Assembly (NCBI GenBank): GCA_963760675.1
Contig: CAVXEG010000017.1
Location: forward strand, 200,515 to 264,514
Source of the DNA: an uncultured Verrucomicrobiae bacterium
Lineage (GTDB): Bacteria; Verrucomicrobiota; Verrucomicrobiia; Limisphaerales; BOG-1460
Length of the DNA: 64,000 nt
Direction: 5' to 3'
Shown: positions 12,329 to 50,810 of the stretch, in pieces
Position numbering within the stretch: position 1 is the first letter of the stretch
Layout: every line of letters begins with the position of its first letter
Position numbers and translations under genes: made by a program
Notes under the pieces: generated by a model
Told to the model about the DNA's origin: nothing
What the model saw: the letters and a program-made list of their open reading frames with translations, nothing else
The model's database searches: none

Positions 12329-12390
12329 AAACCCTTGTAAATATTGGCGCATCCGGCAGGACTTGAACCTGCAACCTTCTGATCCGAAGT
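12329..12390. repeat. attL-type direct repeat. Partial copy of tRNA-Arg(TCG) 3' portion (46 nt from CCA end to anticodon loop) plus 16 nt of flank. Identical to 50718-50779.
   Basis: 62/62 identity by eye to the sequence at the intact tRNA-Arg. Confidence 0.8.
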
Positions 12391-12720
12391 TTCAATAATG
12401 GCCTGTCCAAGCGTGATTTAGGGCGTTCCACTGCATAGTGAGAGAAATCATTGATTTCATTGGTCAAAGTCCAGATTTCCGAGCAAAACAAGACACTTAC
12501 CAGGGAAACCCGCGGACCATCACAATCCGCAGCACAAAAACAACTTGACTCGCCGGTCCGAATCCGTCCAAGATTCTCAGGCCAGCATCGGGAACTCACC
12601 GCCCGTAGAAATGGCGGTCTACCAACCAGCCTGTGGAAGAGGCAACGGTGGTTCAGACAACACCTGAGTGGGTGAAAGTGTCGATGTAGAAGAAAAGAGT
12701 ATCTCCATACGGCAGATTGA

Positions 12721-12756
12721 AAACCGTCCCGATGTTTGCGGACGGTTTATTTTTTG
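12721..12756 (+). terminator. Rho-independent terminator-like hairpin (aaaccgtccc..ggacggttt + TTTTTT)
   Basis: 9-bp GC-rich stem, then a T6 run on the plus strand. Confidence 0.5.
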
Positions 12757-13350
12757 CCGGCTTTCCCGATGTGTTTGAAAGAACACATCAACGATGAACA
12801 GTAGCACCTCGGGTCAGCGCCGAAATCATCGGCGCTGCCGTTTCTGAAAAGTCCTCAACCAACCCCTCCCGACATAGCAATTTCGTGCCACGGAAGCATC
12901 GTGCTTTTCCATCCGCTGACTGAGGCGGCGCGCAACTGGATGCGCGAACACTGTCCGAAAGGCGTGCGACCACACATACTTTGGCGGCGCTCTCGTAGTC
13001 GAGCCCCGCTATGTCGAAATCATTTTATTCCTTGCCGGCGAAGATGGGCTACTCGTTTGAGGACGGAACCAACACCACTCAAAGAGAGGCATACGCATGT
13101 GGTCCCTACCTCGAGATTATCCGATCAACGCCCGCGCCGCGAAGAATGCGGCGAGCTGAAACGCGAGGCCAAGTCGCAAACGCAAACCGAAGTGTGAACA
13201 TCACGACTGTACTGCAGGGCTGACGTTCGTTCCTGGTTTACGACATCTTCAGTGACGACCCAAAAGGCATTCGAACCTGTGTGAAGCCACAACGGATACT
13301 CGCGGCGACCCGGCTGAGGGCTATCTTCACTTGCTGCACTGCGGCGCGTC

Positions 13351-13611
13351 ATGGTCGAGAATTACACGTGGGAGATTTACCGCGTGGAGCGCGAGGGTGA
13401 GACCGTTTGTTTGAAATGCGCAGCTGAGGCGCATTTCAGCGACCCGGAGAATTGGATTGACCCGTGCGAAGTAAAGTACGTCGTGCTCGAACCGGACGTG
13501 GCAATCGCCTTTCGATTCGGAAAGTGGGGTGCTCAACGTGGCTCGCTGCCCGCATGTCCTCGGTGTGAAACAGCCGCTCCCGACTGGCATAGCGTTTCAC
13601 GAAAACGCTGA
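13351..13611 (+). CDS. Small hypothetical protein with paired CxxC motifs (zinc-ribbon-like)
   Basis: 86-aa ORF, VCLKCAAE...CPRCE. Confidence 0.3.
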   Translation: MVENYTWEIYRVEREGETVCLKCAAEAHFSDPENWIDPCEVKYVVLEPDVAIAFRFGKWGAQRGSLPACPRCETAAPDWHSVSRKR

Positions 13612-13899
13612 ATTCGACAGCATGGACGGTCACCAAATCGTCCGGGCGTCGTTTGCTCGACATGATTCAGGACCTCGACAGACCATTCGTGCCCGGTGCT
13701 CGACGCCGCATATCAGTTCGCCGTGAGCATTGGGCTTTATGTGCGCGCAACGGATTCCAAAATGCGACAGGAGGCAGCATGAACTCTCATGCGGCCTCCA
13801 TAGTCGGCTTCCACACAGAGTTTCAGTCGGACCAATCGGGCGCCAGGCTCGCGGTGGTTCCGAAATTCAAATTCATCAAGGCCGAAGGACGGCCGCGGT

Positions 13900-15007
13900 C
13901 GCGACATTGACGGGCTATGGATTCGCAACGGCCGTTTCTATTACCAACAATCGGTTCCGGGAAAAGGCTGCAGCCAAGCGCCCGCTGAAGGATACGCAAA
14001 ATCAGCCGGTCAGAGCATTCAACAGGCGAAGGACGCAATCGAGGCATTGCGTTTGAAAAGCGCGAAGGAGAAGTGCCTTGTTCGGGACGGGCTCCTCGGT
14101 TCAATGAATACGTAGAATATTACCTTACATGGATGAACCAGACGCAGGCGAAGAAGCCCAAAACACTGGTGCGGTGAGCGAAGTATTTTAAGGGCTGGGT
14201 CAAGTTTTTCGAGGCGTCCGTCTGAACCAAATCACTCAGCGAGACATCAACGGATACGCGCTAAAGCGGAAAAGCAGCACAGTAAGCAATCGAACCGTGA
14301 ATATGGCCGTGCTCGTGTTGGGAAATCTATTCCGCTTCGCCAGGAAGGACGGGGTATTTTCGGGCAAACTGCCGACTGACGGTTGGGAGAAGCTCGAATA
14401 TCACGCAGAGAAACAAAAGTTGTTTACCAAGGAGGAGATTGACCATTTCTGCGCCGTTGCAATTTCACAGAATGCGGACGGCACACCGCGATTCAAGAAC
14501 GGGGAGATGCTACGAGATGCTGTCCGGCTAATGAGTCTGTCAGGAGCCAGGTTGGCCTCTGCTCTGGCGCTTTGCTGGTCGGACATGAACTGGGAAAGAC
14601 GCCAGGTCACCTTTTGGCGGGATACGAAGTATTCAAAGACCATCATCGTCGATTTCAATCCTGAACTTGAGGCACTGCTGAAAGACTTACATTCGCGATG
14701 CCCCCCGGACACCGATGCACTGTTCCCAAGTAATCGGTCAGATGGCAGCGAAAGCATTGCTTCGTTGCGGAAATCTTTCGAACTCGTGCGCGAGGCCGCA
14801 AACCTGCCCGACTTCAAATTCCACTCGCTCAGGCACTATTTCGTCTCCAGGTGTGTGATGGCCGGAATCGACCTCCTGACCATCGCCGCGTGGGCGGGTC
14901 ATGCGGATACTGTCTTACATCTTAACCAAGACACGACGAATACTGAGCTTCATTCACCAGAAACCCGAAATGCCAACCTAAAGAGATGCCGTCCGACGCC
15001 AACATGA
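13900..15007 (+). CDS. int: Tyrosine recombinase / phage-type integrase. Catalytic C-terminal domain intact (14297..15007). N-terminal SAM-like domain split over 3 frames.
   Basis: HSLRHYFVSRCVMAGIDLLTIAAWAGHAD (HxxR...Y region) and LMSLSGARLASALALCWSDM. Upstream frames read IRNGRFYYQQ...AKDAIEALRLKS, typical of an integrase N-terminus. Confidence 0.7.
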
Positions 15008-15056
15008 TGACTAGACCCGAAGCGGCCTACATCCTCGACACCTTCCCCACCGCGAC

Positions 15057-15865
15057 ATGAATACCATTGGTCAGTTAATGAGGAACGCAAAGTCCGCATT
15101 GGCGCATCGAATGTTGAAGCAAACCGATCCGCGAGGATACGCGGCTTGCCCACAGGACAATCTGATTCAAGGTGTCGAGATGGGATTGTTTGAAACTGAG
15201 TTGCGGAGCGGGGACGGAGACGAACTGCGAATGAAATTCTGCGCCGCACACTCGTCGTCGGCGCTCGCCGCAAATAGTTTCGCGCCATTCAAACTCACAC
15301 CCAGTTCACGCTTGTCCTGTTGGGGCAGCACGGCTTCGACCGCGTTTGTTTTGAAAAGAAGCTGGATACCGGATTTCAGCGGAAGCCGAATCTCGATGTG
15401 TGGTTGGAGCATCCTAGTGGCGTGGTCGGCATCGAATCAAGACTTCTCGAATACATCATGCCCAAATTCGGCGCTTTCGGGGAACGGTATCAGCCTAAAG
15501 CTATGCCTTGGGTGGAAGACTGCTGGTGGAAGGTATGGAACGACGCGAAACAGGCGGGGAAGCAGCATCTGGATGTTGCGCAGTTGGCCAAGCATTACTT
15601 CGGCCTGAACCGGCTGTTGAAAAATGAGAAGCCTCCGGCCTCCGCGACGCTGCTGTATCTTTTTTGGGAACCGGGCAACGCCTCAGATTTCCCTGCGTTT
15701 CGCGAGCACCGTCGAGAAATCGAAGCTCTGTCCGTCGCCGTCAAGAGTTCTGTGGTCTCGTTTGAATGGCGGAGCTATCTTCAACTTTGGGCTGAATGGG
15801 AGCAGCAGCCTCTCCTTGTCCCGCATGTAGAAAATCTACGAAGCCGATATTTTTTGAGCTTATGA
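15057..15865 (+). CDS. Hypothetical protein (~265 aa), frame change near 15300
   Basis: ORFs 15057..15608 (N-terminus) and 15320..15865 (C-terminus) both protein-like. No confident domain call. Confidence 0.4.
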
Positions 15866-16094: not shown

Positions 16095-16964
16095 TCAAAC
16101 AGGCATCGTGAACCGGCATTTCGGATACGCCGAGCATCCCCAGAATTGAGGGCCAGCGCTGTCCCCCTTCGTCGCCGTCCGCAACACCATTTCCTGTTCG
16201 CATTTCGGGCAAAACTTCCGTGTGTCGTTCAGGATCGTCAGCGTCTCAGGATCGAACCGACAATCGGTGTCCTCGATCATCTTTGCCAACCCGGCCTCGT
16301 TGACGATCTCGATGCCGTGCTTCTCGGCCAGTTGCTTTGCGTCTCCGGTGTAACCGCAAAGCGTGATGAAGACGCCCTTCGAGATTCCCGCGTCGGTCAA
16401 AGCGCCGAGAAATTCTCGTACGGCCTTTACGCCCACATTCCAAGTCCGCCATTGCTTGCATTGTACGGCCGAGCGTTGGCCGTCTTTCTCAATCACGAGA
16501 TCAATTCCGCCATCTGGATTCGCACCGCCTCGGCGAGTGACGGTGAAACCGAGCTTGCGATAAACCAGGGCGACCAACTTCTCGAATTGAAACCAATCAA
16601 TCGCCCGGAGTTGCTCCATTAAATCGGCGGTGGTCACCGGACTTTCCTCGCTGGCCGCAGGTACGATGATGATGTCTTCGCTCGCAGGTGTGGAAACCAG
16701 GGTGTCGAGCCTGGTCGTTGAAATCGGGAACGACGGCTTTCTCTCCGTTCGCCGGATCAAAAACACAACGAACGCCACGGCACCGAGGAAGATGATCGCT
16801 CCGATAAGAATGACGCCGAAACCGAGGAGCATCTGCCGGACTTGGGGCAGAAACATGCCAGCGAATACGAGAAAGGCGATCAACTGGGCCACGCCCAGCG
16901 CAATGTCCAATTCTCGATTTCGTCTGCGTCTTGCCACAACTTTGTCCCTCCATGCGCAGCGCAA
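16095..16964 (-). CDS. Membrane-anchored Mrr-like restriction endonuclease (PD-(D/E)xK, Mrr_cat) with C-terminal topoisomerase-type C4 zinc ribbon
   Basis: Two N-terminal TM helices. GGIDLVIEKDGQRSAVQCKQW core motif. C-terminal FCPKCEQEM...FWGCSAYPKCRF. Confidence 0.7.
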   Translation of the reverse strand: MRCAWRDKVVARRRRNRELDIALGVAQLIAFLVFAGMFLPQVRQMLLGFGVILIGAIIFLGAVAFVVFLIRRTERKPSFPISTTRLDTLVSTPASEDIIIVPAASEESPVTTADLMEQLRAIDWFQFEKLVALVYRKLGFTVTRRGGANPDGGIDLVIEKDGQRSAVQCKQWRTWNVGVKAVREFLGALTDAGISKGVFITLCGYTGDAKQLAEKHGIEIVNEAGLAKMIEDTDCRFDPETLTILNDTRKFCPKCEQEMVLRTATKGDSAGPQFWGCSAYPKCRFTMPV

Positions 16965-17168: not shown

Positions 17169-17450
17169 TTGAAATCCGTGCTTCAGAAACAACTTGGACG
17201 GCGCATCGCTGAATTGCGCAAGAATCGAGGGCTGACGCAAATGCAACTTGCGAAGTCCTTGGGTTGCTCCGTGGAGTTTATCAGCCTGGTCGAGCGTGGT
17301 GTGAACGCCCCGTCCGTTGCCCGGCTGGAAGATTTTGCCAGGGTGTTGAAGGTGGAGGTCGTCGATCTGTTTAAGTTCGCTGGCCGGAAGCCAACTCGCA
17401 TCAGGAAAGTTCGGATCAGCAAGAGAGGGGGATCATGGATTCCCAACTGA
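17169..17450 (+). CDS. XRE-family helix-turn-helix transcriptional regulator
   Basis: LTQMQLAKSLGCSVEFISLVERG HTH signature. Confidence 0.75.
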   Translation: MKSVLQKQLGRRIAELRKNRGLTQMQLAKSLGCSVEFISLVERGVNAPSVARLEDFARVLKVEVVDLFKFAGRKPTRIRKVRISKRGGSWIPN

Positions 17451-17758
17451 CCTTTTACCAGTTTAGCCGCTCGAAAGTGGAATCAGGAGATTTCAGTCAT
17501 TTCCTCGCCCTATATGGGCCAAATCCATGACCGAACAAGAGTTTCAAAGCGTCTATCCGTGGTCGCCGCCTGGATTCAACAGACGCTGGCACACCACGCC
17601 TCGGCATCACAATCCGTGACCTCGTTCGGCTTCAGACGTCTGCCGCATTATTACAGCCACGACATTCTGAACTGAGCAAAGGTCGTTGTCGTGCCGACGG
17701 GTGCCGATACCGCCACTGTCAGCGATGGGCCTCGACCGGTTCAGGGATTTCGAGCAAC

Positions 17759-18067
17759 ATGGAGGCTGGAGGCATCACGTACCTCGACACGTATTTCGTT
17801 CGCGCTGACGAAGCTCAGTCGGAATCGCTCCACTTTCACGAACTCGTTCACGTCATCCAGTGGCGGTTGCTCGGCCCGGAAAAGTTTCTGGCGCTGTACG
17901 CCGATGGCTTGGAACGCTTCGGCTACCGGAACAGCCCGCTGGAAGTCATGGCCTACGAATTACAGGAGAGGTTTGAGCGCGAACAGCAACCGTTCGACGT
18001 TGAGGCCGCATGTCAGAAAGCTACTCTGGAATGTAACCAGCCACGGAGCAAGAGGCGCATCCCTTGA
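17759..18067 (+). CDS. HExxH metallopeptidase-like protein (ImmA/IrrE, DUF955-like), partner of the XRE regulator
   Basis: HFHELVHVIQW motif. Immediately downstream of the XRE gene. True start may lie upstream in another frame. Confidence 0.45.
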   Translation: MEAGGITYLDTYFVRADEAQSESLHFHELVHVIQWRLLGPEKFLALYADGLERFGYRNSPLEVMAYELQERFEREQQPFDVEAACQKATLECNQPRSKRRIP

Positions 18068-18073: not shown

Positions 18074-18421
18074 ATGAGCGCGATTCGCACATACAACGTC
18101 GAGGCCGGGCTGCCCGTTCTCGACGAGGCGCGGCGGCTGGTCATCGGAGAAATCAAGCGGGCCAAGCGCGACGGAGTGAAGGTGCTAAAGGTGATTCACG
18201 GTTACGGCTCATCGGGCAAGGGCGGAGCACTCTGTGTCGGGCTGCGCAAATCGTTCGGGCTTGCGGAAAAAGGAAGGGGTCATCAAGGATTTCGTTGCGG
18301 GCGAGGATTTTTCAATTTTCAACCAACGGTGCTGGCCCTGCTGGAAGCCGTACCGGAGTTGCGCGGCGATCCTGATTTGGGCGCAACCAATGAAGGCGTC
18401 ACCATCCTCTGGCTGAAGTGA
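18074..18421 (+). CDS. Smr domain protein
   Basis: LPVLDEARRLVIGEIKRAKRDGVKVLKVIHGYGSSGKGGAL resembles the Smr nuclease domain. Tail possibly frameshifted. Confidence 0.55.
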   Translation: MSAIRTYNVEAGLPVLDEARRLVIGEIKRAKRDGVKVLKVIHGYGSSGKGGALCVGLRKSFGLAEKGRGHQGFRCGRGFFNFQPTVLALLEAVPELRGDPDLGATNEGVTILWLK

Positions 18422-18853: not shown

Positions 18854-19540
18854 TCAGCTTCGCCAGCGCATAAGCCACACCGGCTGCGCCCCTCCGACCA
18901 GCACCGTTTGCAGGGCGCTCTTGATCTTGGAGACGCCCGTGAACTTTCCCTTCACGAAGCCGAACACCGCCAACGCCGTCAGCGTGAACACGACCGAGAA
19001 GTAGAACGCCGTCTTGATGTCGTGGAAGGCGATGTACGGGGCGAGCGGGATGATCCCGCCGACAATGTAGGACACCGCAATCGTCACGGCGCTTTGCAGT
19101 GCCCGCTTCGGATCGGGTTCCTCAAGGCCCAACTCGAAGCGCATCATGAAATCCCGCCAAGCCTTCGGTTTGGTGCGCAGGCCCGCGACGACCGGCCCGT
19201 ATTCCTGATCCGTCAGCCCATACTGCCGGAAGAACTCGGCCACTTCCTCCGCCTCGACCTCCGGCTTCTCTCGGATTTCGGCTTCCTCCCGCGCCAGTTC
19301 GCTCTGGTAGTGCTCCACTTCGCTCCGGGCGGCCAGATAACCGCCCAGGCCCATCGCTATCGAGCCAGCGGCGATCTCGGCGAAGCCAGCCGTGACGACA
19401 ATGTGGGCTGCGCTGATGGCTCCCGAAATCCCTGCCGCCAGGGCGAACGGCACCGTCAGCCCGTCCGACATGCCGATCACGATGTCTTTTACCGTGTCGC
19501 CGCCTCGAAAGTGTTCTTCCCGATGATAGAGGGTATCCAT
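18854..19540 (-). CDS. VIT1/CCC1-family iron/manganese transporter
   Basis: DGLTVPFALAAG motif with 3-4 TM helices in the C-terminal half. Start taken at MDTLYHREEHF. Confidence 0.7.
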   Translation of the reverse strand: MDTLYHREEHFRGGDTVKDIVIGMSDGLTVPFALAAGISGAISAAHIVVTAGFAEIAAGSIAMGLGGYLAARSEVEHYQSELAREEAEIREKPEVEAEEVAEFFRQYGLTDQEYGPVVAGLRTKPKAWRDFMMRFELGLEEPDPKRALQSAVTIAVSYIVGGIIPLAPYIAFHDIKTAFYFSVVFTLTALAVFGFVKGKFTGVSKIKSALQTVLVGGAQPVWLMRWRS

Positions 19541-20095
19541 ACCGGGCAGGGTAGTTGCGAGAGTGCGGTTCAACAAGCGATCTGCGACTCTGCTGCGTTG
19601 GGATGAACGGAGGTCAGCTAACCGCCGACAGTCTTGTCAACAACCCAGAAGACCGCTGTTCCGTTTTGTTGTTCCTCACTGCTATTCCCAACGCTTTCTG
19701 CTGGCCAACGAGAACGACGAGCTTCTTGCCCCGCGTCGCCCCCCACGAGACAGATTGACGGAGTGATGGAATTTAAACACGAATACCGAGGCACGAAACA
19801 TCACGGGATCGACTTCGTCACGATGAGCGGTTTTCGCATCAACCGATTCGGATATTTGAATTCAAGATATTTGCACCCCCACAAAGTATAAGTGGACTGT
19901 AACCATGATCTCGTGATACACGTCTTGCACGTTCGATGAGAAACTGCATCAACATATCAGCCACGAGTTGGCCGACGATGACGGTCGCGAAAGCGACACG
20001 TCATAGCCGGTATAACCCGGGTTGTGCGTTTAGCCAGAGGCTATCCCTCGCATCCATCGGGCAACGGCCCGAAGGTAATTTGGATAGTCCCGGAG

Positions 20096-20170
20096 GTAAG
20101 CAGGTTTAAAGAATCGAACGAAAGATTTCTCTCACCCTGCTTACCGCAATGTAAGCAGGGTTTTTTGTTT
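20096..20170 (+). promoter_or_regulatory. Attenuator-like element: gtaagcagg (20096-20104) and gtaagcaggg (20151-20160) can each pair with ccctgcttac (20135-20144). The downstream pairing is followed by T6, giving antiterminator/terminator alternatives.
   Basis: Direct sequence inspection. Upstream ~230 nt is structured and GC-rich. Lies ~500 bp upstream of ECF sigma 20664. Confidence 0.4.
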
Positions 20171-20473
20171 CCCTGAAACTGACGGTGAAATGGCAGCAAC
20201 GAAAGGTGAACAGTCTGTGAACGATAACAAAGTGACGTCTTGATGATGTCTGACAGTGCCAAACGAATTGAGGCGCAGGAACGCCGAGGCGTTCCACCGA
20301 TGTGGTGTGCCCACGCGGAGCGAATACGCGCGCCGAGACGATTTGAAACGCTTTTACATTTTAAGGGCTTCGGAGGAGGTGTGCCCCTAAACACCGAAAC
20401 AGCCGCCGTGAATCCGCGGGTTGGGATCGCAAGTAGATCACAAGAGGTGTTTGTTCTTTATTGAAATGGCATG

Positions 20474-20508
20474 GGCCGGGACTGAAACAAGTCCCGGCCT
20501 TTCAATTT
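20474..20508 (+). terminator. Hairpin gggccgggac..gtcccggcc followed by TTTCAATTT
   Basis: 9-bp GC stem with interrupted T tract. Same hairpin+TTTCAATTT architecture recurs at 22995, 31180 and 32833. Confidence 0.45.
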
Positions 20509-20663
20509 ACTCCCTGCGCCAAGCCAATTCGCGTTCACCTTTCGACAACTGGCGCGTAGCAACACCGGCTCAGTTATACCCACGATAAAGTCAGCGAAGA
20601 TGTCATGTTATCTATGCTTATACCGTTTAGTTCGCCGCCGCAAACGCGCTGCCGCCATCACTA

Positions 20664-22963: not shown

Positions 22964-22994
22964 GTGACGGAACTTTGTCCTTTAATGACACAAC

Positions 22995-23036
22995 GCGGGC
23001 CGGAAGTGCAATGACGCTTCCGGCCCTTTCAATTTC
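22995..23036 (+). terminator. Hairpin gcgggccggaag..cttccggccc followed by TTTCAATTTC
   Basis: Sits after the anti-sigma stop. Leads directly into the first tRNA of block D. Confidence 0.5.
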
Positions 23037-42150: not shown

Positions 42151-42237
42151 ATCGAACCAGAACGCCTAACCAGAGCGCTGCAGCGAACCGCCGCCCCGCT
42201 GGGCAGTCGGACGGTTCGGATAATTTGTCAGCGACTG

Positions 42238-42842
42238 TTGCAGCCGACCGGGCGTTTCCGGCGGCGGTCGCTGAGCTTGGTCGTTCGACGACATGCTATG
42301 CCCGGGGTCTTTGAGTTAAAATACCGTGACGGCCGTGTTGAGGAACTATGGGGCCATCGCGGGTATTACTATGTGCTGGGCCCTGACACATTATTGTGTT
42401 TCTTGCCGATTCCCGCGTGGTGCCATCAATGCGGGGCTGTTCGGTTGTGCGAGGATTTGAAGACGGTGGGCGAGATTCGCGAAGAGTTGAAGCAGATCGA
42501 GAATCCAGAATCGGATTGGTATCGTCGGCAGAAACGCCCTCCGTCCGCACAGGACATAGGAATCGAAAAGGAGTCGCGTCAGAATCAGCTAAGGCTCTGG
42601 GGGCTCCGAACCTCCTCGGCTCGATGTATGAGTTGCGGCAAAAGTTCAGTGAGCTTTTTCGCAGAGGACAAATGGTCGCCTCACCCGGAACTGGCGAAGA
42701 GGTCTTGTTCTTATGGGTCGGCATGGGCAGCACCAATTACGCGATGCGTTTCTTTGATCCAGATGGAGCGGAGCTCACATTAAGTGACGCACAGCGTCAG
42801 CATTACTTGTCGCTTGTCAGAACCGGCCAACACTTATGGTGA
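42238..42842 (+). CDS. Hypothetical protein, probable frame change
   Basis: ORFs 42238..42783 and 42396..42842 both protein-like. Confidence 0.3.
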
Positions 42843-42958
42843 AGTCGAACCCCAGCGTGCAGCGGACCAGAGCCAGCCGTTCGGATCACCATGCTTTCCC
42901 AAGCCAGTGGCGGCTGGCACCAGCCGCTGACGCTTGCCGTTCGGCGACTTGAAACACC

Positions 42959-43291
42959 ATGACACAGAAGGCGACATTACGATCGTTGACGGTTGTTCAA
43001 GTCGTCGCGGTAATTCTGATGTTTCCGGTTTTCTTCTGCTGGGCTCCTTGGGAATCTGCAATACCGCGCGAAGAGGCTCTTGCACGCTTTCCTGGCCAGG
43101 TCGGTGCCGATTGGAGGGCAGTGACAGTGAATCACGGTAAGGTTCACGAGTGGAAACTTGGCACTGTTAGCCAGAATCCAGCGGGGTTCGCCTTGTGCAC
43201 GCTTTTACTGGTTGCGATCCTCGGGGTGCTGTTTTGGAGCATCTGGTTTGCAGCTCGGACCAAGAGATTCAAGAGAGGACAGAATTATTGA
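42959..43291 (+). CDS. Small membrane protein (2 TM)
   Basis: Hydrophobic segments VVQVVAVILMFPVFFCW and ALCTLLLVAILGVLFWSIWF. Confidence 0.4.
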   Translation: MTQKATLRSLTVVQVVAVILMFPVFFCWAPWESAIPREEALARFPGQVGADWRAVTVNHGKVHEWKLGTVSQNPAGFALCTLLLVAILGVLFWSIWFAARTKRFKRGQNY

Positions 43292-43799
43292 GATGAGTGG
43301 GTCGCCGAACCAGTTCACTGGAGCCAACAGCCGCTGTGCCGGGCAGTTGGACAGTTGTCGGAGTCACAACGGTGTGGTTCCAGTCGCGAGCGCGCGGCCA
43401 GCGGCTGTGGCTCAGTTCTGGCGTTGATATGGCTCAATAAGTGTCAAGCGGGCAGTTGGATTTGGTTGCCGGTTTTTCACGGATTTTCTTTCCGACATGG
43501 CGCAATGGACTGAGGGGTTGGCAGAGGCCGCCATCAACGACGGTTGATCCTGCTGATATGCGTGAGTTCGTCCGGTGCAAAGCACGGACTTATCGACCTG
43601 ACCACGGTGCGAGTCGCGGCGCTTCCTCTCTCTAGGCTCGAGGGTCCCTCAAGGGGCCTCTTAACGACAACGAGGGTTCGCCTTAACCGAGCTGCTCTCT
43701 GCCAACGCATCAATCCATTCCAAAGTTGAACAGGCTTCTTTATCTTTGTTCTGATTCCTGCCCGAGGCTGCTCCGGGCGAGCGCAGCGGATGCGCAGCG

Positions 43800-45200
43800 A
43801 GAGCCGGCGCGTCAGCGGTGGGATTCCGTGACGACCGTTGGTGCTGTTTTGCTCTGGCGTTGGCATCGGCTTGCTTTCTCAAAAGCTATTGGGTTTTCTG
43901 GAACTGCTTTTCCGGGTTGAGCCGGTAGACCTTGCCGCGGCAGGTGCGAATGATCTCCGGGGCAGCCGGCTGCGGCGCGGCCTGGACCTGGCAGGCAATG
44001 GCCCAGACAAAGCCGGTGAGTTCGCGGGCGATGGCCGTGGCGGCCACCACACTCTTCTTGCGGATGGAAAGTTGTTTGAAGCGTTTATGGAGCCGCGGTT
44101 GGGCCTTCCAGGCTATCAGGCGCACGGCCTTGCTCTGCTGTTGTTGCCGTTTCTGCATCGCCTCGCTGACCTTGGGTGGCAGCCGATAATGCCAGGCGGC
44201 TTCGGTCAGCACGCGCCGGCAATGGGCGTTGCCGCATTTGGTGATGCCGCCCTGCACCCGTTTGTCGGCACTGGTATGTTCGCTGGGAGTCAGCCCGAAA
44301 AAGTGCATCAAGGATCGCGGGTCCTCAAAGCGGCTGAGGTCACCGACTTCAGCCACCAGGGTCATCGCCGTCAGAACCTGGACCCCGCGCAAGCTCATGA
44401 GCGCGCGCACGACCGGTTCCCACTTCCAGCCCGGCAGGGCAGCTTCCACCGCCTGGGTGAGGCGTTGGAGACGATCACTGGCCTCATCGATGGCATGGAT
44501 GTATTCCTGAAAGGCGATTTGCTGGGGGGCTTGCGGCATCAACAGGCCGGAGAGATACCGCTTGTGGGCATCGGTCCAACTGCTCTTGCCGGTGTAACGA
44601 AACCCCAGGCGCAATAGAAAGCCCTTCAGCCGGTGGCGCGCCTGGCGCTGATCGTGGACGGCGGCCGTGCGGGCGCGGATGAGGTCGCGGATGGCTTCAT
44701 CCTCCTGATCGGGCACATGGATGGCCGTGAGTTCACCGGCCCGATAGAGGCGGGCGAGCTGATCGGCGTCGCGCCGGTCGGTCTTGACGCGGTCGGAAGC
44801 TTTTTTGGGAATGAGCGAGGGGCTGACGACCTCGCAAGGAATGCCTTTGCTGCGGAGGTGACGGCAAATGACAAAACCGCAGGGACCGGCTTCATAGACC
44901 ACGCGCAGCTCAACGTTGTTCTGTGCGATGCGTTTGATGAGTTGGTCGATGGCCTCCAGAGTGCCGCCGATGATGCCGTAACGGCGGACTTCCGTGGAGT
45001 GCTGCGGGGCGATAGCCACCGCGATGGTTTCTTTGTGGACGTCCAAACCGAGGTAATGCACGATTTTGTTCATGGGTGTTTGGTTTCGCTATTCGGTGAT
45101 CAATGACCCAGCTTCGGGCCGGGTCTTTAACAGGGTGGATAGGTCCGCACTCGCGGATAACCCACGTTTCCAACCGGAATCAAACACCCGCTCCGGCTTT
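43800..45200 (-). mobile_element. IS110-family insertion sequence (boundaries approximate)
   Basis: Contains an intact IS110 transposase gene. IS110 elements lack clear terminal inverted repeats, so ends are not defined here. Confidence 0.55.
43886..45073 (-). CDS. IS110-family transposase (DEDD), intact 395 aa
   Basis: N-terminus MNKIVHYLGLDVHKETIAVAI and C-terminal helix-hairpin-helix region. Confidence 0.8.
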   Translation of the reverse strand: MNKIVHYLGLDVHKETIAVAIAPQHSTEVRRYGIIGGTLEAIDQLIKRIAQNNVELRVVYEAGPCGFVICRHLRSKGIPCEVVSPSLIPKKASDRVKTDRRDADQLARLYRAGELTAIHVPDQEDEAIRDLIRARTAAVHDQRQARHRLKGFLLRLGFRYTGKSSWTDAHKRYLSGLLMPQAPQQIAFQEYIHAIDEASDRLQRLTQAVEAALPGWKWEPVVRALMSLRGVQVLTAMTLVAEVGDLSRFEDPRSLMHFFGLTPSEHTSADKRVQGGITKCGNAHCRRVLTEAAWHYRLPPKVSEAMQKRQQQQSKAVRLIAWKAQPRLHKRFKQLSIRKKSVVAATAIARELTGFVWAIACQVQAAPQPAAPEIIRTCRGKVYRLNPEKQFQKTQ

Positions 45201-45236
45201 CTGGTAAGCCATATGGTCTAGGCCACTCGACGAGTC

Positions 45237-45455
45237 ATGCCGAAGTTTCAGCTCTATGACGAGGTTCGAGTAGTCCGCGTGCCTGCGGGACAGCGAGCCA
45301 GTGCTGCATCTCGGTTGGCGAGAGTCGGAGACATTGGAGTGGTTGTGATGGTTTACGATTCACCGCGAGAAGGCTATGGGGTTGAGGGCGTCGAAGACGA
45401 TGGACGCGTTGAGTGGTATTTCGATTTTGCACCAGAGGATTTAGAGAGAGTTTGA
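45237..45455 (+). CDS. Small protein, DUF4926-like
   Basis: 72 aa, FQLYDEVRVV..GDIGVVVMVY...GYGVE pattern. Confidence 0.4.
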   Translation: MPKFQLYDEVRVVRVPAGQRASAASRLARVGDIGVVVMVYDSPREGYGVEGVEDDGRVEWYFDFAPEDLERV

Positions 45456-46087
45456 GTTAGGCCGCAAGACGCGCATTGATTTTATGAAGACAAACACCTT
45501 TCAGAATATTGAGACGTTCAAGATCAGCTCGCTGATTCCGATATTGTCACCCGTCGTCATTTTGCTGCTGTTTTACAGCCTGCGATGGTCGGGAGTTTTA
45601 GGGGCGGTTCTTTTCACAGCGATGCTCTGTTCATCGCCAGCCAGCTATCGCACTCGCGGCGGTTCGCTTGTTCCGGCTATTTGTTTGGTGGCTGTTCCTG
45701 TGGTTTTCCGCTGCCGTGGTTTTTGTGCTTTCATTTTTCGGAGCACATTGAGTTATGACAATTTTGCGGCATAACCAAACCGGCTGCAGGCAACGCCGGA
45801 GGCGGGTCTCAATTGACAATCGAATGCCATTGGCCAGGCGTCCCTGAGCCGGAACGTTGGCCAGCAGACACGGCCGCAAAACTTATGATAAATAAAAAAC
45901 ACCAACCGTTTGTCCGGGCGCTCACCACGGCGTTCGTCCTCGTGTTTGGGACTCTGCGGATGCAAGAGTTCACGGCGCGGGCTCAACGAACCGGGTCGAC
46001 TGCCACGGTCAGCCCCGCAGCACATCCACTCGAGAATGGCGCATACGCCTGTCCTTCGCGAAGCGCCCACGCCGCAAGAGGCCCGAG

Positions 46088-46456
46088 TTGAGGGTGGCTC
46101 CCAAGGTTGTGCTTGCTTATGACCGCAGAAAATACAGCGGCGCCCCGCCCAATGAGCCTCTCACCTACGTTGCCATTGATCCGAAAGATTACGTTCCGCT
46201 GATTATCGAAGGCACGCCGGAGATGAAAAGCGATGGGCAGGGCAAGAGCGTTCTCACGGTGTCACTGGCGCGCAAGAACGTGGAACGGGCGGAAGCATTC
46301 ACCCGGGCGCACCTCGGCGGCCGCATAGCGATGGTCGTGGACGGGGAGATTGTGACATTGCACAAGATCCGGAGCGTCATCACAGGCGGGAAGGTGCAGA
46401 TCACTCGCTGCACCGACAACGCGTGTGAGGTGATTCGCTCAAAGCTTGTCAAATAG
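46088..46456 (+). CDS. Hypothetical protein
   Basis: 122-aa ORF with protein-like composition. Confidence 0.35.
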   Translation: MRVAPKVVLAYDRRKYSGAPPNEPLTYVAIDPKDYVPLIIEGTPEMKSDGQGKSVLTVSLARKNVERAEAFTRAHLGGRIAMVVDGEIVTLHKIRSVITGGKVQITRCTDNACEVIRSKLVK

Positions 46457-46623
46457 ATAGGCCATGCCATGACGACGTGGTAACAAGATCACTGGAGCGA
46501 AAGTGGCGGGCGCATGCAGTTTCATGCGCTTGGTTCTTTCGCGTTTCCCGAGCAGTTGGAGCGGCGCTTACCGCCACTTCGCTCAGTTCTGTCGTTAGGC
46601 TGCAGCGTTTCAGTGACGAATTT

Positions 46624-46872
46624 ATGAAAAGGAACCTGAAGCAGTTATTCGTAATCGGAGCTGCCAGCTTTTTGCTGGCTGGCTGTCGCATGACACACCA
46701 CGTCACACGTTGGGAGTATAAGGTTGCGGACGTGAACAGAATCGGGCTTACCCGCGCGGAGATTCTGAAGAAGCAGGAAGCGTTGATGAACGACTTGGGC
46801 AAAGATGGATGGGTATTTGTGAGCCAATTCGCAGTCGACGGGAATCTATGTTTCAAGCGTCCCCTGAAATAG
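46624..46872 (+). CDS. DUF4177-like lipoprotein
   Basis: MKRNLKQLFVIGAASFLLAGC...WEYKVADV...DLGKDGWVFVSQ. Confidence 0.45.
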   Translation: MKRNLKQLFVIGAASFLLAGCRMTHHVTRWEYKVADVNRIGLTRAEILKKQEALMNDLGKDGWVFVSQFAVDGNLCFKRPLK

Positions 46873-47241
46873 CGGTCGCAGCCTAACAATGAAGGGTGTG
46901 TTGCTGCGGGGCGCAGCGGAGCCAGCAAACACGCCATTGGTTGAAACCAGAGCATTGCACACAACGCCGGTTGGCGCTCTCAGTTCGACCGGAAAACTAG
47001 GGACGCTGATTTGGAAAGGGTGGTCAGCCTCACGAAAGCCAAAGCGCGGCGCATTTTGCCGTTCGATACACCAGATCAAAGTCGCGAGGATAAGAGAGTG
47101 AATCTCGATGTCATGCTGCCCTTTCTGAATGACAATTGGACCCAGCCATGAACGATGCTGCTTCAAAGCGAATCCACACAGTCTCAGTGCGCGAATTGAT
47201 CGAGTTTGTCTTGCAACGGGGAGACTCGGAGAAACGGCGGT

Positions 47242-48204
47242 TCATTCCTGCGACTTACATTTCGCGCTGACGACCCTCAAGGTCATGTAGGTTTCATTGT
47301 CGCCGATTCTTTCGGCAATGAGTCCCACAACGCCGCCGCAAATCAGGCGCGGAGGATTTGGCGCGGTGACAACAAGGGTTATTTTGAGGACGCTTTGATT
47401 ATTCATTCGAAGGAAACAAGGAAGATAATAAATGGGCGTGTCGGGAGGCAGATCCCAATCTGTCGGGTTGGCCGGCACAGCGGTTCGCATAATCTCGAGC
47501 GCAGTCTTTACCCCCAAGTGAGTGACGACTGACCACACGGATGGCGGTTTTAGGAGTTGGAAAAGAAGGTCCTCCAATCCGTCCGTATGCTGAACAATTT
47601 CGAGATAAGACGTGATCGCCGGCAATGCACCGGCAAGGGCTTGCTGCTCGTCGGGGGTCAGCTTGCTGGCAGGGGCGGCATTTGTCATCAGCCTCTGACG
47701 ACGAACAATGGCTGCGGCGCGCTCCAGTCCGATGCCAAGAAAGCTTTCATTCAGCATGAAATGGGCGGTTTGCTCGCTGGGTTTCAATTGCATCTTGTCA
47801 CTGGAAGCGTTGAATGGCCCGAGCATTCGCAAACTGGCCGGGACCGGCTTTGATGGGAATGAAAATCTCCGTTTGAACATGTTGACGACCATCGGCGGTT
47901 GATTGGAGGTGATTTTTTCCTGAGACTCTGCTCGAACGTATAAGAGCCACTGCGCTTCCTTTTTTTTGTGGAACATTGTGCCTAAAATCGTCACCGAATC
48001 TCCCGAATGCAGGATGTTCGTGGTGAGTGGAGGGTCTATGCCCGTGAGCGGAATATGGTTTGTGGCGGCTGCGGTGACGATGGCAGCACAGATCGGGACG
48101 GTTTTGAATTTGGGAGGAAGATCCTGCGCGATTGCGCGACAGTTCGCGTCAATGACCGCCAGCACCATTAAGAGGCATGCAATGAGTGGAAACACCCTCG
48201 GCAC
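47242..48204 (-). CDS. Secreted hypothetical protein (lower GC)
   Basis: Signal peptide MPRVFPLIACLLMVLAVIDANCRAIAQ. 320 aa. Confidence 0.45.
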   Translation of the reverse strand: MPRVFPLIACLLMVLAVIDANCRAIAQDLPPKFKTVPICAAIVTAAATNHIPLTGIDPPLTTNILHSGDSVTILGTMFHKKKEAQWLLYVRAESQEKITSNQPPMVVNMFKRRFSFPSKPVPASLRMLGPFNASSDKMQLKPSEQTAHFMLNESFLGIGLERAAAIVRRQRLMTNAAPASKLTPDEQQALAGALPAITSYLEIVQHTDGLEDLLFQLLKPPSVWSVVTHLGVKTALEIMRTAVPANPTDWDLPPDTPIYYLPCFLRMNNQSVLKITLVVTAPNPPRLICGGVVGLIAERIGDNETYMTLRVVSAKCKSQE

Positions 48205-48790
48205 CTTGGTTCGACCGCGTTCGGGGCCGTTTTGTTCAGCGGCTATCAGGGTGGTTACCCAGTCCGTCTCTTATCCGTCGGTCACTTTCGGGTGAAGTGG
48301 CGATGGTTTGCCTGACCGATGCGCCGGTGGCGGTGTCGATGAGATGGAGATCGGCTTTGCGGTCGGAGCGATCCAGGCCGATGACCAGGTCGAAGGGAGG
48401 GTTGGAGTTCATGTTCATGTTTTTGGGTTTTGGATTAAGGCCTCTCCGCAGGCTTGACCCGGCGACGGCAATATAGAAGAGTCGTTCAGCAATGTGAGGC
48501 GGCCTCTTGAGTAGTCGTTAGAGGGTCAAGCCCGCCCGGCGGGCCGGTCGATAAAGCTCAAAGTCGTTGCGACGACTGGTCGTTAGCAGACCTGGCCCGC
48601 CGGGGCGAAAAACCGAGGAAGCGGATAACCGAAATGAAACCCAAGGCCATCCGCTCATGCTCTGCCGACCGGCGGCGGCGAAGTTATTCACGGCCGCTGC
48701 GCGAGTCCTCCAACCCACTCGCCCGCATCCCATGAATAACTTCGGATGACCTATATTGGCGTTCGGCGACAACAACGGAGAGTCAATGAT

Positions 48791-48991
48791 ATGAAAAAGT
48801 GGGAATATAAGGTTATCGACACGAAGGACGTCCCAGGGGGTGGGATACTCAAGGGCAAAAGTTGCGATGCGATCGAGGCTCACCTGAACGAGCTCGGCGG
48901 ACAAGGTTGGGAGATTGTGAACCTTGACGCCCTCGAATGGCAAGGTCACCGCCTGACGTTCTTGGGTGTTGCTAAGCGCGAGAAGTCATGA
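48791..48991 (+). CDS. DUF4177-like small protein (paralog of 46624..46872)
   Basis: MKKWEYKVIDTKD...LNELGGQGWEIVNL. Confidence 0.45.
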   Translation: MKKWEYKVIDTKDVPGGGILKGKSCDAIEAHLNELGGQGWEIVNLDALEWQGHRLTFLGVAKREKS

Positions 48992-49160
48992 CCGACCTCA
49001 AAGGCGAGGTGGGGCGCATTAAACTCAACGCGCATGAATTGCCGAACCGGTCGCTCGACCGAATGACGAGGAGCGCGGGCACGTCACTGTCCGGATTCGA
49101 GCGTCACTGGCGCGCTCCTCGTCATCGGTCGGCTTTGCGTTAACCAGAATGCCTCGTGCT

Positions 49161-49548
49161 ATGAAAACCATCGCAATAGTGCTCCTGCTTGTTGCTAGTT
49201 GCTCGATTGGCTGCAGAGGCGTGTCGTCGGAGCATCAGTCTGCAGAGGCAAAGGCCAGTGCCGTTTCTGAAGCCCCATTGTCATCGACGCCGCCCATTCA
49301 GCATCTGACGGCCGAGCAAGCTATTGCACTGGCCAAGCCGTCCCTATGGCTGCCACCGGGAGATCAATACCGCGCGCGTTTCATCCCTGAGCCGTCAACG
49401 GTATATGCGCCCGGCAGCGGTCCGGTCCGGCAACGGGGCAATATGGTGGGTTTTTACTGATCAGGATGGTGCTCACTACCGCGCTTACACCGTCGTTGTG
49501 ATTCGAGACTCGGATGGAAAGATCCTCGGTTCCGAAAATCACTTCTGA
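49161..49548 (+). CDS. Lipoprotein, frame change near 49440
   Basis: MKTIAIVLLLVASCSIGC lipobox. Tail in ORF 49324..49548. Confidence 0.4.
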
Positions 49549-49669
49549 AGAATGTATGGGCTTTCTGGTTAACCAATCGCGCCAGCCAACGCCGGGAGTT
49601 CGCCTTGCGGCGCACCGGACATCAATGGCCCGGCGTGGCTGCGCTCAGCGTTAGGCCACGAGACACGCT

Positions 49670-50058
49670 ATGGCATCTGATGAACGAGAAATCCGCACGA
49701 TGCATTCAATTTGGATTGATGCCGTCAATGCCGGTGACCTGGCTCGTCTGCTCACCTTAGTCGCGGAGGATGTCGTTTTTCTCACGCCCGGCCAAGCGCC
49801 GTTCGGCCGGGAGGGATTTCGTCCAACTTCATGGTCGCTCACCAGCAGATGCGGATCTGTTGCACCAGCGAGTTGGAAGAGGTCGTTGTTGTCAGCGAGG
49901 TCGCCTACACGCGGAGCCGAGACGCACTGTCAGTGACCCCGCGCGCAGGCGGGAAGGCGGCACAGTTCGCCGGACATCGCATGACGGTATATCGCAAGCA
50001 GCGCGACGGTCGCTGGCTTCTGTCCCGCGATGTCCACACTTTGTCCGCCGTGGCCTAA
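49670..50058 (+). CDS. SnoaL-like / NTF2-fold (DUF4440-like) protein, frame change near 49830
   Basis: IRTMHSIWIDAVNAGDLARLLTLVAEDVVFLTPG then ...VYRKQRDGRWLLSRDVHTL. Confidence 0.45.
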
Positions 50059-50717
50059 CCTAACCTCTGCGCCAGGCGCGACATTGAAAGCCTAGGACAA
50101 CGAAAAGACCGGAGAGCAACAAGGTGCCAGTCATGGCTGAAAACAACTCAGTCTCGGTGAAGTCCAACTGAGCGAGCCTTCGAATGCCAAACACCATCAC
50201 TACACCGGCAACTATAGAGCAAAGAATCTGACAAAAATGTGCCACGTTCTTATCAGAAACCACCGCGCGTCTGAGAGTCTGAATAATCATAAATCGCCTT
50301 TCTATCTTGATAATACATCACACTGAATCTGACAGCCGAACGGGGAAAACATCACGGACACTCCAGCGGCCTAACGACAGAACTCACACACGCCGGACCA
50401 AAAGACGCTGCCCGCGAAGCGGAACTGAGACCGCCATCCGGCGTTGTGTGCAGTGATCTGGTTCGGCCTCATAGTTCCTGCTCAATCTTCTTCTCTGCGC
50501 AATCCATCGGCGGAGTTACTCCGAAAAAATGTTCCCGATAACTTTGCTCCGCGAAAGAGCTTTGTCGTCGAACAGCACCTCCTTGATGCGTTGAAAGAAA
50601 CGCAGCACAAATACAAAGCCCGAAACCACGATTCCTCGAAAGCTGACACGGCCAATAAGGGGGGGGACCAGCACAATCGCAGCACAATCGTGAATCCGAC
50701 TGAGACGGATTCTTCAT

Positions 50718-50779
50718 AAACCCTTGTAAATATTGGCGCATCCGGCAGGACTTGAACCTGCAACCTTCTGATCCGAAGT
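50718..50779. repeat. attR-type direct repeat, identical to 12329-12390. Overlaps the 3' 46 nt of the intact tRNA-Arg.
   Basis: 62/62 identity by eye. Confidence 0.8.
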
Positions 50780-50810
50780 CAGAAGCTCTATCCAATTGAG
50801 CTACGGATGC
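50734..50810 (-). tRNA. tRNA-Arg(TCG), canonical (D-loop AATTGGATA with GG, T-loop TTCAAGT), encoded CCA
   Basis: GCATCCG TA GCTC AATTGGATA GAGC T TCTGA CTTCGGA TCAGA AGGTT GCAGG TTCAAGT CCTGC CGGATGC G CCA. Confidence 0.85.

Follow-up and report, generated by a model that had tools for sequence, protein, structure and literature searches.

Islands and prophages that sit in tRNA genes, with crossover in the anticodon loop, are reportedly among the integration-site classes distinguished by Williams in 2002. Long tRNA arrays (L-arrays) are described as spreading horizontally and as linked to an HNH nuclease and rtcB; plasmids, conjugative elements and also phages carry them (PMC8421152; PMC4758250). 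A tRNA array unit is defined as at least 20 tRNA genes, at a density of at least two per kb, in one orientation (PMC4758250). Features of both are found in the window studied here (the whole stretch of DNA analysed, 64 kb). We consider it probable that the window, part of a Verrucomicrobiota chromosome, holds a genomic island inserted in a tRNA-Arg(TCG) gene; the interior of this island is a mosaic.

The ends of the island and the integrase gene

The ends are marked by a 62-nt direct repeat with 100% identity between its copies, located by a repeat search of the window and by reading of the sequence. The features at the ends are as follows.

12329-12390, no strand assigned: attL, displaced copy of the repeat (16 nt of downstream flank plus tRNA-Arg positions 32-77)
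13867-~15050, plus strand: tyrosine integrase gene, disrupted (Pfam PF00589, E = 3e-16; domain at 14297-15007)
50718-50779, no strand assigned: attR, second 62-nt copy, the 3′ part of the intact tRNA gene
50734-50810, minus strand: host tRNA-Arg(TCG), intact (called by ARAGORN and by Rfam, 71.9 bits)

The host tRNA-Arg(TCG) has a canonical T-loop (TTCAAGT), G18G19 and an encoded CCA. Its 3′ end faces the island, and transcription is directed into the island. The register of the repeat is directly visible: attR spans positions 32-77 of the tRNA (46 nt, from the last base of the 5′ strand of the anticodon stem to the CCA) and the 16 nt downstream, and attL is oriented in the same way as the tRNA gene. 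The two copies have no similarity to each other in the 60 nt on their outer and inner sides. When the core was searched for by blastn at low stringency, no third copy appeared in the window, only an inverted T-arm similarity to the array tRNAs. By our own arithmetic, about 1e-28 exact 62-nt matches would be expected by chance in 64 kb. The original prediction of a 62-bp att core duplicated at tRNA-Arg(TCG) therefore holds at its coordinates, with 62 of 62 nt identical and the intact tRNA called by both programs.

The integrase was likewise predicted 1.5 kb inside the left repeat. It is there, with its domain confirmed by Pfam, although the gene is disrupted as assembled. The remnant runs through frame +1 (13867-14079), frame +3 (14055-14204, with an internal TGA) and frame +2 (14210-14947), with the tail out of frame. 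An 18-nt in-frame (six-codon) deletion removes IGRVYG, including the catalytic Tyr; with three frames and internal stops, the assembled gene lacks an intact R-H-R-Y set. The closest full-length homologues carry an integrase annotation, the nearest of them (P0122) being 71% identical. An integrase from Pedosphaera (43% identical) adjoins a tRNA-Leu gene in the same geometry. The arrangement of repeat, tRNA gene and integrase supports site-specific insertion into the tRNA gene. Because the integrase has lost its catalytic Tyr and its reading frame, the island is probably immobile and fixed in place. Part of this damage could be consensus error, since frameshifted genes are numerous in the island and the flanks alike.

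The many small gene-breaking indels in the contig point to an uneven consensus quality, and a short-read contig from another run begins at the inner edge of the right repeat, to within 2 nt; both would suit a repeat made during assembly, by a chimeric join or a duplication at shared tRNA sequence. However, a partial tRNA with an identical 16-nt non-tRNA flank requires a second molecule sharing the 62 bp, and such a molecule would be an attP-bearing element. Together with the integrase next to the repeat and a composition that is continuous across both junctions, this makes an artefact highly unlikely.

Comparison of composition inside and outside the island, proposed along with the original prediction, gave no contrast. 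The GC content is 0.573 inside and 0.581 outside, and the tetranucleotide correlation of the island with the flanks (r = 0.86-0.92) is close to that of flank pieces of similar size (0.89-0.94); the island therefore has no clear foreign signature. The host is closest to Pedosphaera-like metagenome bins from soil and peat. The flank genes have their best relatives at 74-81% identity, without synteny and with no empty attB among them, and the exact 62-nt core did not occur in the metagenome and viral collections searched. No public relative was close or syntenic enough to reveal an empty site.

Contents of the island

The left arm, between the integrase gene and the tRNA array, carries the following genes.

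15057-15865, plus strand: REase-ARP-like restriction endonuclease, split over two frames (PF22558, E = 1e-11, profile positions 114-270)
16095-16964, minus strand: Mrr-type (type IV-like) restriction endonuclease, membrane-anchored, with a C-terminal topoisomerase-type zinc ribbon (Mrr_cat match)
17169-17450, plus strand: XRE-family HTH regulator (domain search)
~17750-18064, plus strand: ORF with an HExxH motif, no family match
18074-18421, plus strand: weak Smr-like ORF (E = 0.0011, under the Pfam cut-off)
18854-19576, minus strand: VIT1-family iron/manganese transporter (E = 6e-67), the last gene of the left arm

The right arm (37750-50717, no strand assigned) is mostly without host-like coding signal. 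Domain searches identified the following features in it.

39499-40467, minus strand: LamG
40841-41554, strand not given: cupin
43886-45073, minus strand: IS110 transposase, intact
46088-46456, strand not given: SecDF-P1-like ORF
48239-48517, minus strand: IS110 N-terminal remnant
48740-48988, strand not given: DUF4177
49655-50055, strand not given: DUF4440, frameshifted

Most of the cargo named in the original prediction was recovered (Mrr_cat with its zinc ribbon, the XRE HTH, HNH, two RtcB, GH127 and GH2 fragments, and IS110). The exceptions are GIY-YIG, which was not found, Smr, which is a weak match, and the ImmA-like partner, which is unconfirmed, with the HExxH motif but no family match.

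Arrays of tRNAs with HNH genes are common in large phages, HNH homologues in IMG/VR (41-48% identity) also follow tRNA arrays, and a conjugative element of Acidithiobacillus bears a tRNA array (PMC4758250). These parallels would fit a prophage or an integrative conjugative element. In the ORFs scanned, however, there are no virion, packaging or lysis genes (capsid, portal, terminase, tail and lysis domains) and no Pfam domains of relaxases, coupling proteins or type IV secretion. Nucleotide comparison with 50,697 phage records gave no match, and the sole match among 72,556 plasmid records is 199 bp long, at chance level. No relative of P0122 was found in viral contigs. We regard either identity for the interval as very improbable.

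Between the two arms lies the tRNA-array module, the main cargo of the island, ordered as leader, tRNAs, RtcB#1, tRNAs, SPFH protein, tRNAs, HNH, a 246-aa-family ORF and RtcB#2, and interrupted by two insertions.

19831-37747, plus strand: tRNA-array ('L-array') module, with sharp ends common to at least 20 other loci
19831-20508, plus strand: conserved non-coding leader of two units (terminator hairpins; conservation across loci)
20509-22973, plus strand: insertion specific to the window, inside the module (ECF sigma factor, 20664-21266; zf-HC2-type anti-sigma factor, 21253-22836)
23037-23723, plus strand: tRNA block A, with Gly(GCC), Ala(TGC), Asp(GTC), Pro(TGG) and degenerate copies
23733-28720, minus strand: insertion specific to the window, inside the array (GH127, 23799-26304; GH2, ~26300-28701; each broken over several frames)
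28735-29374, plus strand: tRNA block B, with Arg(TCT), Asn(GTT), one without assigned isotype, Ser(CGA), Ile(GAT), Phe(GAA)
29392-30578, plus strand: RtcB RNA ligase #1, split over three frames (domain/homology search)
30634-30960, plus strand: tRNA block C, with Glu(TTC), one without assigned isotype (Arg(GCG) there in relatives), Thr(CGT), His(GTG)
31173-32045, plus strand: SPFH/Band-7 protein (69-87% identical to module copies at other loci)
32875-34870, plus strand: tRNA block D, with Cys, Lys(CTT), Arg(TCG), Leu(CAG), Ser(GCT)-like, Ile(TAT) (92 nt, long variable arm), Arg(CCT), Gly(GCC), Val(CAC), Glu(CTC), Thr(GGT), Thr(TGT), Leu(GAG), Gln(TTG) and three further Rfam tRNA matches
34879-34906, plus strand: reverse complement of the invariant element of the leader, lying 42-69 nt before the HNH start codon
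34948-35529, plus strand: HNH endonuclease, 194 aa, intact (88-96% identical to >120 Verrucomicrobiota protein clusters)
35610-36333, plus strand: 246-aa-family homologue, split over three frames (the 246-aa protein is always between HNH and RtcB)
36342-37747, plus strand: RtcB RNA ligase #2, with several 1-nt insertions specific to the window

The array has about 30 tRNAs. At 23.2-34.9 kb on the plus strand there are 26 Rfam matches, one tRNA found by ARAGORN only and further candidates from relaxed ARAGORN. A tRNA-Arg(TCG) at 33282-33357 is among them, as predicted. This gives about 2.3 tRNAs per kb, rising to about 4 per kb when the 5-kb GH insertion is left out. In number, density and single orientation the array falls within the definition given above, and HNH and rtcB are attached to it. 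The module belongs to the 'L-array' kind and is common as a cassette in Verrucomicrobiota.

Each of the two leader units ends in an intrinsic-terminator hairpin, one at 20133-20170 and the other at 20473-20500; 19831-20508 has no conserved ORF and matches no Rfam family. These two structured leader RNAs, previously unannotated, precede the array. One of them contains an invariant 27-28-nt element (20443-20470), of which a 27-nt stretch is complementary to the 5′ leader of the HNH gene in the same cassette.

The array tRNAs of the window depart from the canonical elbow: G55 replaces the universal U55 in nearly all, and G18G19 is usually missing. Across the Verrucomicrobiota cassette loci, G55 is present in ~99% of 395 distinct array tRNAs, in all isotypes, and G18G19 is absent in 342 of 377 array tRNAs with G55. 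Positions 54 and 58 covary as a pair, being T-A in 320 and A-T in 45; this speaks against decay and for selection on a re-made elbow. Along with the tRNAs, the cassette holds the two RtcB ligases and several proteins without known function. We tentatively propose, at less than even confidence, that the cargo belongs to a Verrucomicrobiota-wide cassette encoding a structurally distinct second tRNA pool. If functional, the array tRNAs would be an elbow-altered, separately regulated set, which could evade particular forms of processing, modification or nuclease recognition, or depend on them. If it works like the Anabaena L-array (PMC8421152), the array may serve as a reserve of tRNAs induced by stress, with RtcB repairing tRNAs.

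Proposed arrival of the array and assembly of the mosaic

The module ends at 19831 and 37747, which are directly observed, recur in many loci, and the two inner segments are absent from every relative. The module is found with the same ends in >85 other Verrucomicrobiota contigs without the integrase of the window. Neither this integrase family nor any island-arm gene lies within 10 kb of the array in any of 86 loci. The flanks of the array vary among the 86 loci, consistent with a supernumerary, sporadically distributed array. In two loci (L084 and L085), the array abuts orthologues of two features that belong to the left chromosomal flank in the window, the giant gene and ORF 5817-6353; this hints that the array may have long resided in the neighbourhood of the giant gene. 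Because the module is self-contained, occurs elsewhere without the integrase and adjoins the orthologue of the giant gene in a relative, the array may have come separately or be long resident. The original prediction that everything between the repeats is an integrated element stands for the insertion anatomy at tRNA-Arg, but oversimplifies the interior.

A small integrase-bearing element (the left arm of ~7.4 kb, perhaps with the right arm) could have integrated by itself. The array module would then have come separately into a resident island, possibly by recombination promoted by its own HNH, or have been relocated from an older site next to the giant gene. The sharp recurrent ends, the loci without integrase or arm genes and the position next to orthologues of left-flank genes in L084 and L085 speak for this, and HNH nucleases have been proposed to promote the spread of tRNA arrays (PMC8421152). 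On the other hand, neither 19831 nor 37747 shows a target-site duplication or a terminal repeat, and the events are undated. We rate separate arrival as a serious possibility that falls somewhat short of an even chance; it is compatible with insertion of an island at tRNA-Arg(TCG), not opposed to it.

For the inserted island, which we prefer, we infer the integration event itself and the order of arrivals as follows. A tyrosine integrase would have inserted the element by crossover within a 62-bp stretch common to attP (element) and attB (chromosome), which runs from the anticodon stem-loop to the tRNA 3′ end plus 16 nt. The copy from the element would complete the tRNA gene at the right end, giving attR, and the displaced chromosomal 3′ piece would mark the left end as attL, with the integrase 1.5 kb inside. 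The integrase would later have lost its catalytic tyrosine and its frame, leaving an island that is most likely immobile. The mosaic now between the att sites consists of a small nuclease/regulator arm (REase-ARP, Mrr, XRE, Smr-like, VIT1), a self-contained module with a long tRNA array (leader RNAs, about 30 tRNAs, SPFH, HNH, two RtcB) and a right arm that is poor in coding sequence and carries IS110 elements. The module would have received two later insertions, the ECF sigma/anti-sigma pair and GH127 with GH2.

Comparison with known systems

The island resembles tRNA-gene-integrated islands and prophages in having an intact tRNA at one end and, at the opposite end, a direct repeat of the tRNA from its anticodon stem-loop to its 3′ terminus, with a tyrosine integrase just inside one att site. 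It differs in that the integrase is distal to the intact tRNA and inactivated, and in that the composition does not contrast with that of the host. With ICEAfe1-type elements of Acidithiobacillus (PMC4758250; reference 30 of PMC8421152) it shares a tRNA array in an integrated chromosomal mobile element; by description those elements are conjugative, whereas no conjugation genes were found in the island. Phage tRNA clusters with homing endonucleases (T4 SegB; large IMG/VR phages) also have an HNH-type nuclease directly after a run of tRNAs. The sampled phage arrays, however, have a TTC T-loop in 25 of 33 tRNAs and G18G19 in 30 of 33, and the island has no phage genes.

The trn operon on plasmid delta of Anabaena/Nostoc PCC 7120 (PMC8421152) likewise has about 30 co-oriented tRNA genes with encoded CCA, supernumerary there and putatively so in the window. 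Its adjacent HNH is homologous to that of the window (43% identical over the HNH core), rtcB is nearby, and the genomic contexts are patchy. The array of the window, in contrast, is chromosomal and within an att-bounded island, is broken up by protein genes and two insertions, and is preceded by a structured leader of 680 nt. The tRNAs themselves also differ: 23 of 24 are canonical in the Nostoc array, whereas those of the window have G55 in nearly all cases and mostly lack G18G19.

The att repeats and the integrase

Site-specific insertion at a tRNA-Arg gene is the best explanation of this stretch, and a likely one, because of its att structure and an integrase remnant. Of the 16 tRNA genes called by ARAGORN in the window, 15 are + strand genes at 23.5–34.7 kb. 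The tRNA-Arg(TCG) gene, also called by ARAGORN, has the top Rfam score in the window (71.9 bits).

Target site and core repeat
50734–50810, −, intact tRNA-Arg(TCG)
12329–12390, left core copy (attL)
50718–50779, right core copy (attR)

The two copies form the single long direct repeat (62 of 62 positions identical). The repeat covers tRNA positions 32–77, starting at the final 5′-strand base of the anticodon stem and running via the anticodon loop to CCA, and additionally spans 16 nt past the gene. The outer 60 nt of either copy show no relation on either side. ARAGORN, Rfam, the repeat search and direct reading of the sequence thus agree with the original prediction of a 62-nt duplicated core and an intact tRNA-Arg(TCG). 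A low-stringency search of the window gave no third core copy in direct orientation, only opposite-strand T-arm similarity to the array tRNAs. The tRNA-Arg gene is transcribed towards the interval, which puts the intact gene on the right and the displaced 3′ fragment on the left. This is the arrangement expected from site-specific insertion with an attP carrying the 3′ part of the tRNA. An assembly duplication was also weighed and rated unlikely. A 2,859-nt contig from independent short reads (Logan ERR12983021) encodes an identical DUF1570 protein and corresponds to about 50781–53639 of the window; by gene offsets, it would start ~2 nt in from the right-hand edge of the 62-bp repeat.

The phage-integrase domain (Pfam, profile positions 18–158 of 172) is located in the ORF 14297–15007. 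In a database search, the relatives of this 234-aa fragment at 71–73% identity are on tiny metagenome contigs, and those at ~43% include Pedosphaera parvula integrases. When relatives are aligned by tblastn, the gene starts near 13867 and is spread over three frames, namely +1 as far as 14079, +3 (interrupted by an in-frame TGA) as far as 14204, and then +2, the shifts being located at A4 and T5 runs. In the tyrosine region all relatives have GHADTVLIGRVYGHLN, and the window has GHADTVL------HLN. An 18-nt in-frame deletion has removed the catalytic tyrosine, and the tail 3′ of the deletion is out of frame again. Judged from the sequence as assembled, no active recombinase could be made from this gene. 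The deletion stands apart, because every other window-specific indel seen is 1–3 nt. The loss of the tyrosine is probably real; the remaining damage may be real or consensus error. The island is probably immobilised. At a Pedosphaera locus (L086, 9404–10879), an integrase (43% identical) and a full-length tRNA-Leu(CAG) are immediate neighbours on opposite strands. The geometry is that of attL and the integrase here and suggests that this integrase family uses tRNA genes generally.

Island contents and consensus quality

The array module (19831–37747) is surrounded by two arms and is itself interrupted by two gene pairs.

Arms and insertions
12.4–19.8 kb, left arm: integrase, REase-ARP-like nuclease, Mrr nuclease, XRE, HExxH ORF, Smr-like ORF, VIT1
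20509–22973, ECF sigma/anti-sigma pair after the leader and before the first tRNA; no counterpart in any related array
23733–28720, GH127 and GH2 pair between tRNA-Pro and tRNA-Arg(TCT); no counterpart in any related array
37.75–50.7 kb, right arm: LamG, cupin, intact IS110 transposase, IS110 remnant, DUF4177, frameshifted DUF4440

The Mrr nuclease and the XRE regulator of the predicted cargo are confirmed, the former being membrane-anchored with a zinc ribbon. The HExxH-motif ORF matches no family, the Smr-like match is weak, and the predicted GIY-YIG nuclease was not found in the island. The right arm mostly lacks a host-like coding signal in the codon-usage model. A 42-nt inverted repeat (46945–46986 and 50422–50463, 90% identical) flanks 3.4 kb of this arm and encloses the N-terminal IS110 remnant (48239–48517, −) and the small DUF4177 and DUF4440 ORFs; this stretch is possibly a decayed composite element.

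Profile searches matched none of the ORFs scanned to virion, lysis, relaxase or secretion families, and PHROGs gave nothing for ten island ORFs. Megablast of 24.7 kb of the island gave no useful nucleotide match in phage records and one 199-bp chance-level match in plasmid records. A prophage and a conjugative element were each considered and rated unlikely. This is a mosaic genomic island of neither phage nor conjugative type. The compositional contrast that had been proposed as a check is not seen, there being no foreign signal from GC (0.573 inside vs 0.581 outside) or from tetranucleotide usage (r = 0.86–0.92 for the island vs 0.89–0.94 for flank controls).

Frame changes were located with a codon-usage Viterbi model and fall in clusters.

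Frame-break clusters
6.3–9.0 kb (6316–8979), vWA/YfbK gene, left flank
24.8–28.6 kb (24858–28558), GH127 and GH2
29389–30444, rtcB#1
35610–37677, includes rtcB#2
53.8–55.7 kb (53779–55721), GyrB/ParE-like gene, right flank

The model places none in the giant gene of the left flank (1–4415), the anti-sigma gene or 55.7–63.9 kb. Set against four other loci, rtcB#2 shows six 1-nt insertions peculiar to the window, mostly outside long homopolymers. Island-specific decay was rejected as the cause, the GyrB/ParE-like and vWA genes of the flanks being equally broken. The frame breaks probably reflect uneven consensus quality; because the topoisomerase-like gene is broken too, much of the frameshifting would be consensus error and not decay.

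The tRNA-array module and its residence in the island

The module contains ~30 tRNA genes in four blocks, with 26 Rfam matches at a relaxed threshold, all on the + strand. Permissive ARAGORN made 116 calls, mostly false, which were kept only where Rfam concurred. Interleaved with the tRNAs are rtcB#1, an SPFH/Band-7 gene, an intact 194-aa HNH nuclease, an ORF of the 246-aa family and rtcB#2. Relatives of the HNH nuclease number more than 6,000; identity is 88–96% in the top 120 clusters, of which the named ones are Verrucomicrobiota. Their contexts repeat one order: tRNAs, SPFH, HNH, 246-aa ORF and RtcB. When the window is compared with 86 loci by blastn, homology always starts at 19831–19837 and ends at 37746–37748, the rtcB#2 stop. 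The array is a separately bounded module of a known kind and matches the 'L-arrays', long runs of supernumerary tRNA genes that are spread horizontally, are linked to rtcB and an HNH homing-type nuclease, and occur in Verrucomicrobia among other phyla (Santamaria-Gomez et al., PMC8421152). Verrucomicrobiota of soil and peat carry the cassette widely. No att-like repeats were found around the array in the other loci. Array-embedded protein genes of 246, 269, 337, 270 and 216 aa are kept across loci; none of these five proteins has a Pfam match, and PADLOC gave none for the 246-aa one.

Conserved array-embedded genes
Window: 32314–32790 and 35610–36333
L084 (array locus): 3383–6770 and 10700–11437
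L081 (array locus): 2031–2678

The 5′ edge of the module is a leader of ~680 nt (19831–20508, +), 77–87% identical in at least 13 loci, with no conserved ORF in the alignment and no Rfam family. The alignment divides it into two units, each closed by a terminator hairpin (20133–20170 and 20473–20500). The first unit has a possible anti-terminator (GGTAAGCAGG, 20096–20105), and its RNAalifold structure has 58 pairs, with compensatory changes numbering 5. The second unit folds into 73 pairs, with 12 compensatory changes, and pairing holds in 95.6% of cells, as against 34–48% with the partners slid, and none of 500 shuffles attains the observed value, in a structure derived from the same nine sequences that were used for its test. 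Just before the second terminator is an invariant 27–28-nt element, AGAGGTGTTTGTTCTTTRTTGAAATGGC (20443–20470), which has no match in viral contigs. Its reverse complement is found at 34879–34906, 42–69 nt upstream of the HNH start, and likewise in ~30 other loci. The two copies could serve for RNA–RNA pairing (antisense control of the nuclease) or as an operator common to both places, and there is no covariation to favour either.

All relatives join 20508 directly to 22974 and about 23732 to about 28721, which makes the ECF sigma/anti-sigma and GH127/GH2 pairs insertions peculiar to this genome. Neither this integrase family nor any arm gene occurs within 10 kb of the array in any of the 86 loci. 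The original prediction took everything between the repeats as one integrated element; insertion at tRNA-Arg is the likely event, and the whole 38 kb may or may not move as a single unit. In the array loci L084 and L085, the array lies between tRNA-Gly(TCC) and a giant gene of 2,291 aa, beyond which comes a gene of 246 aa. In both, these orthologs of the window's giant gene and its neighbouring ORF (L084 12968–20594) adjoin the array directly at its RtcB end. The left flank of the window (1–6353, −) has both orthologs (66% over 1,400 aa, 4415–3; 54%, ORF 5817–6353), and here the array is on the opposite side of the pair, ~13.5 kb off (distance to the leader). On gene order, this placement points to a local hotspot, or else to long residence followed by relocation.

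No empty tRNA-Arg site was found through relatives of flank genes or by searching for the att core in metagenome and viral collections. Relatives of the right-flank hydrolase reach 74% at best in a search with one genome per species and lack the tRNA-Arg beside them, and the exact 41-nt and 36-nt att cores are absent from metagenome and viral contigs. The 121-aa gene just outside attL (11870–12235, +) has relatives 81% and 63% identical (L180–L185), but these share the gene alone, with wholly different neighbours on both sides; thus, even the 'chromosomal' left flank is non-syntenic among relatives.

The tRNA elbow and known arrays

The host tRNA-Arg has a canonical T-arm (GCAGG-TTCAAGT-CCTGC) and GG in the D-loop. 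The array tRNA-Arg(TCG) has acceptor and T stems in common with it, a T-loop TGGGAGT and a D-loop without GG. The comparison of elbows covers 395 distinct array tRNAs from the window (23037–34870, +) and 85 other loci. Positions 54–56 are TGC in 259, AGC in 61, TGA in 30, TGG in 25, CGC in 13, TGT in 2 and TAC in 1; TTC is present in only 4 of the 395, one of these being a host-type tRNA-Gly of L084. G55 replaces the universal U55 in about 99%. The D-loop lacks G18G19 in 342 of the 377 G55 tRNAs, and the 54–58 pair covaries (T-A 320, A-T 45). Nine of ten host-type tRNAs have TTC with GG. In the tRNA-array literature searched, neither T-loop peculiarities nor G55 is mentioned, and a literature search on G55 gave nothing relevant. 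One array tRNA has a class II shape.

Class II-shaped array tRNA
33713–33804, +, 92-nt tRNA with anticodon TAT (Ile), long variable arm and T-loop AGCGTTA

It occupies the same place in at least seven loci; its amino-acid identity is putative.

As an island, the element is ordinary; it is an example caught after the death of its integrase and adds Verrucomicrobiota to the lineages with a long tRNA array inside an att-bounded integrated element. The cargo, with its non-canonical elbow (G55, usually no G18G19), is of greater potential importance. If the array tRNAs are charged and used, they would be a natural test of the limits to changing a universally conserved elbow and a way into the open question of the purpose of long tRNA arrays. 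The array-adjacent HNH of Nostoc PCC 7120 is 43% identical to that of the window over the HNH core (E = 7e-21), and IMG/VR phage contigs have HNH homologs 41–48% identical, likewise located after tRNA runs. The tRNAs themselves differ: unlike those of the window array, 23 of 24 in the Nostoc array are canonical and 25 of 33 in the phage arrays have TTC.
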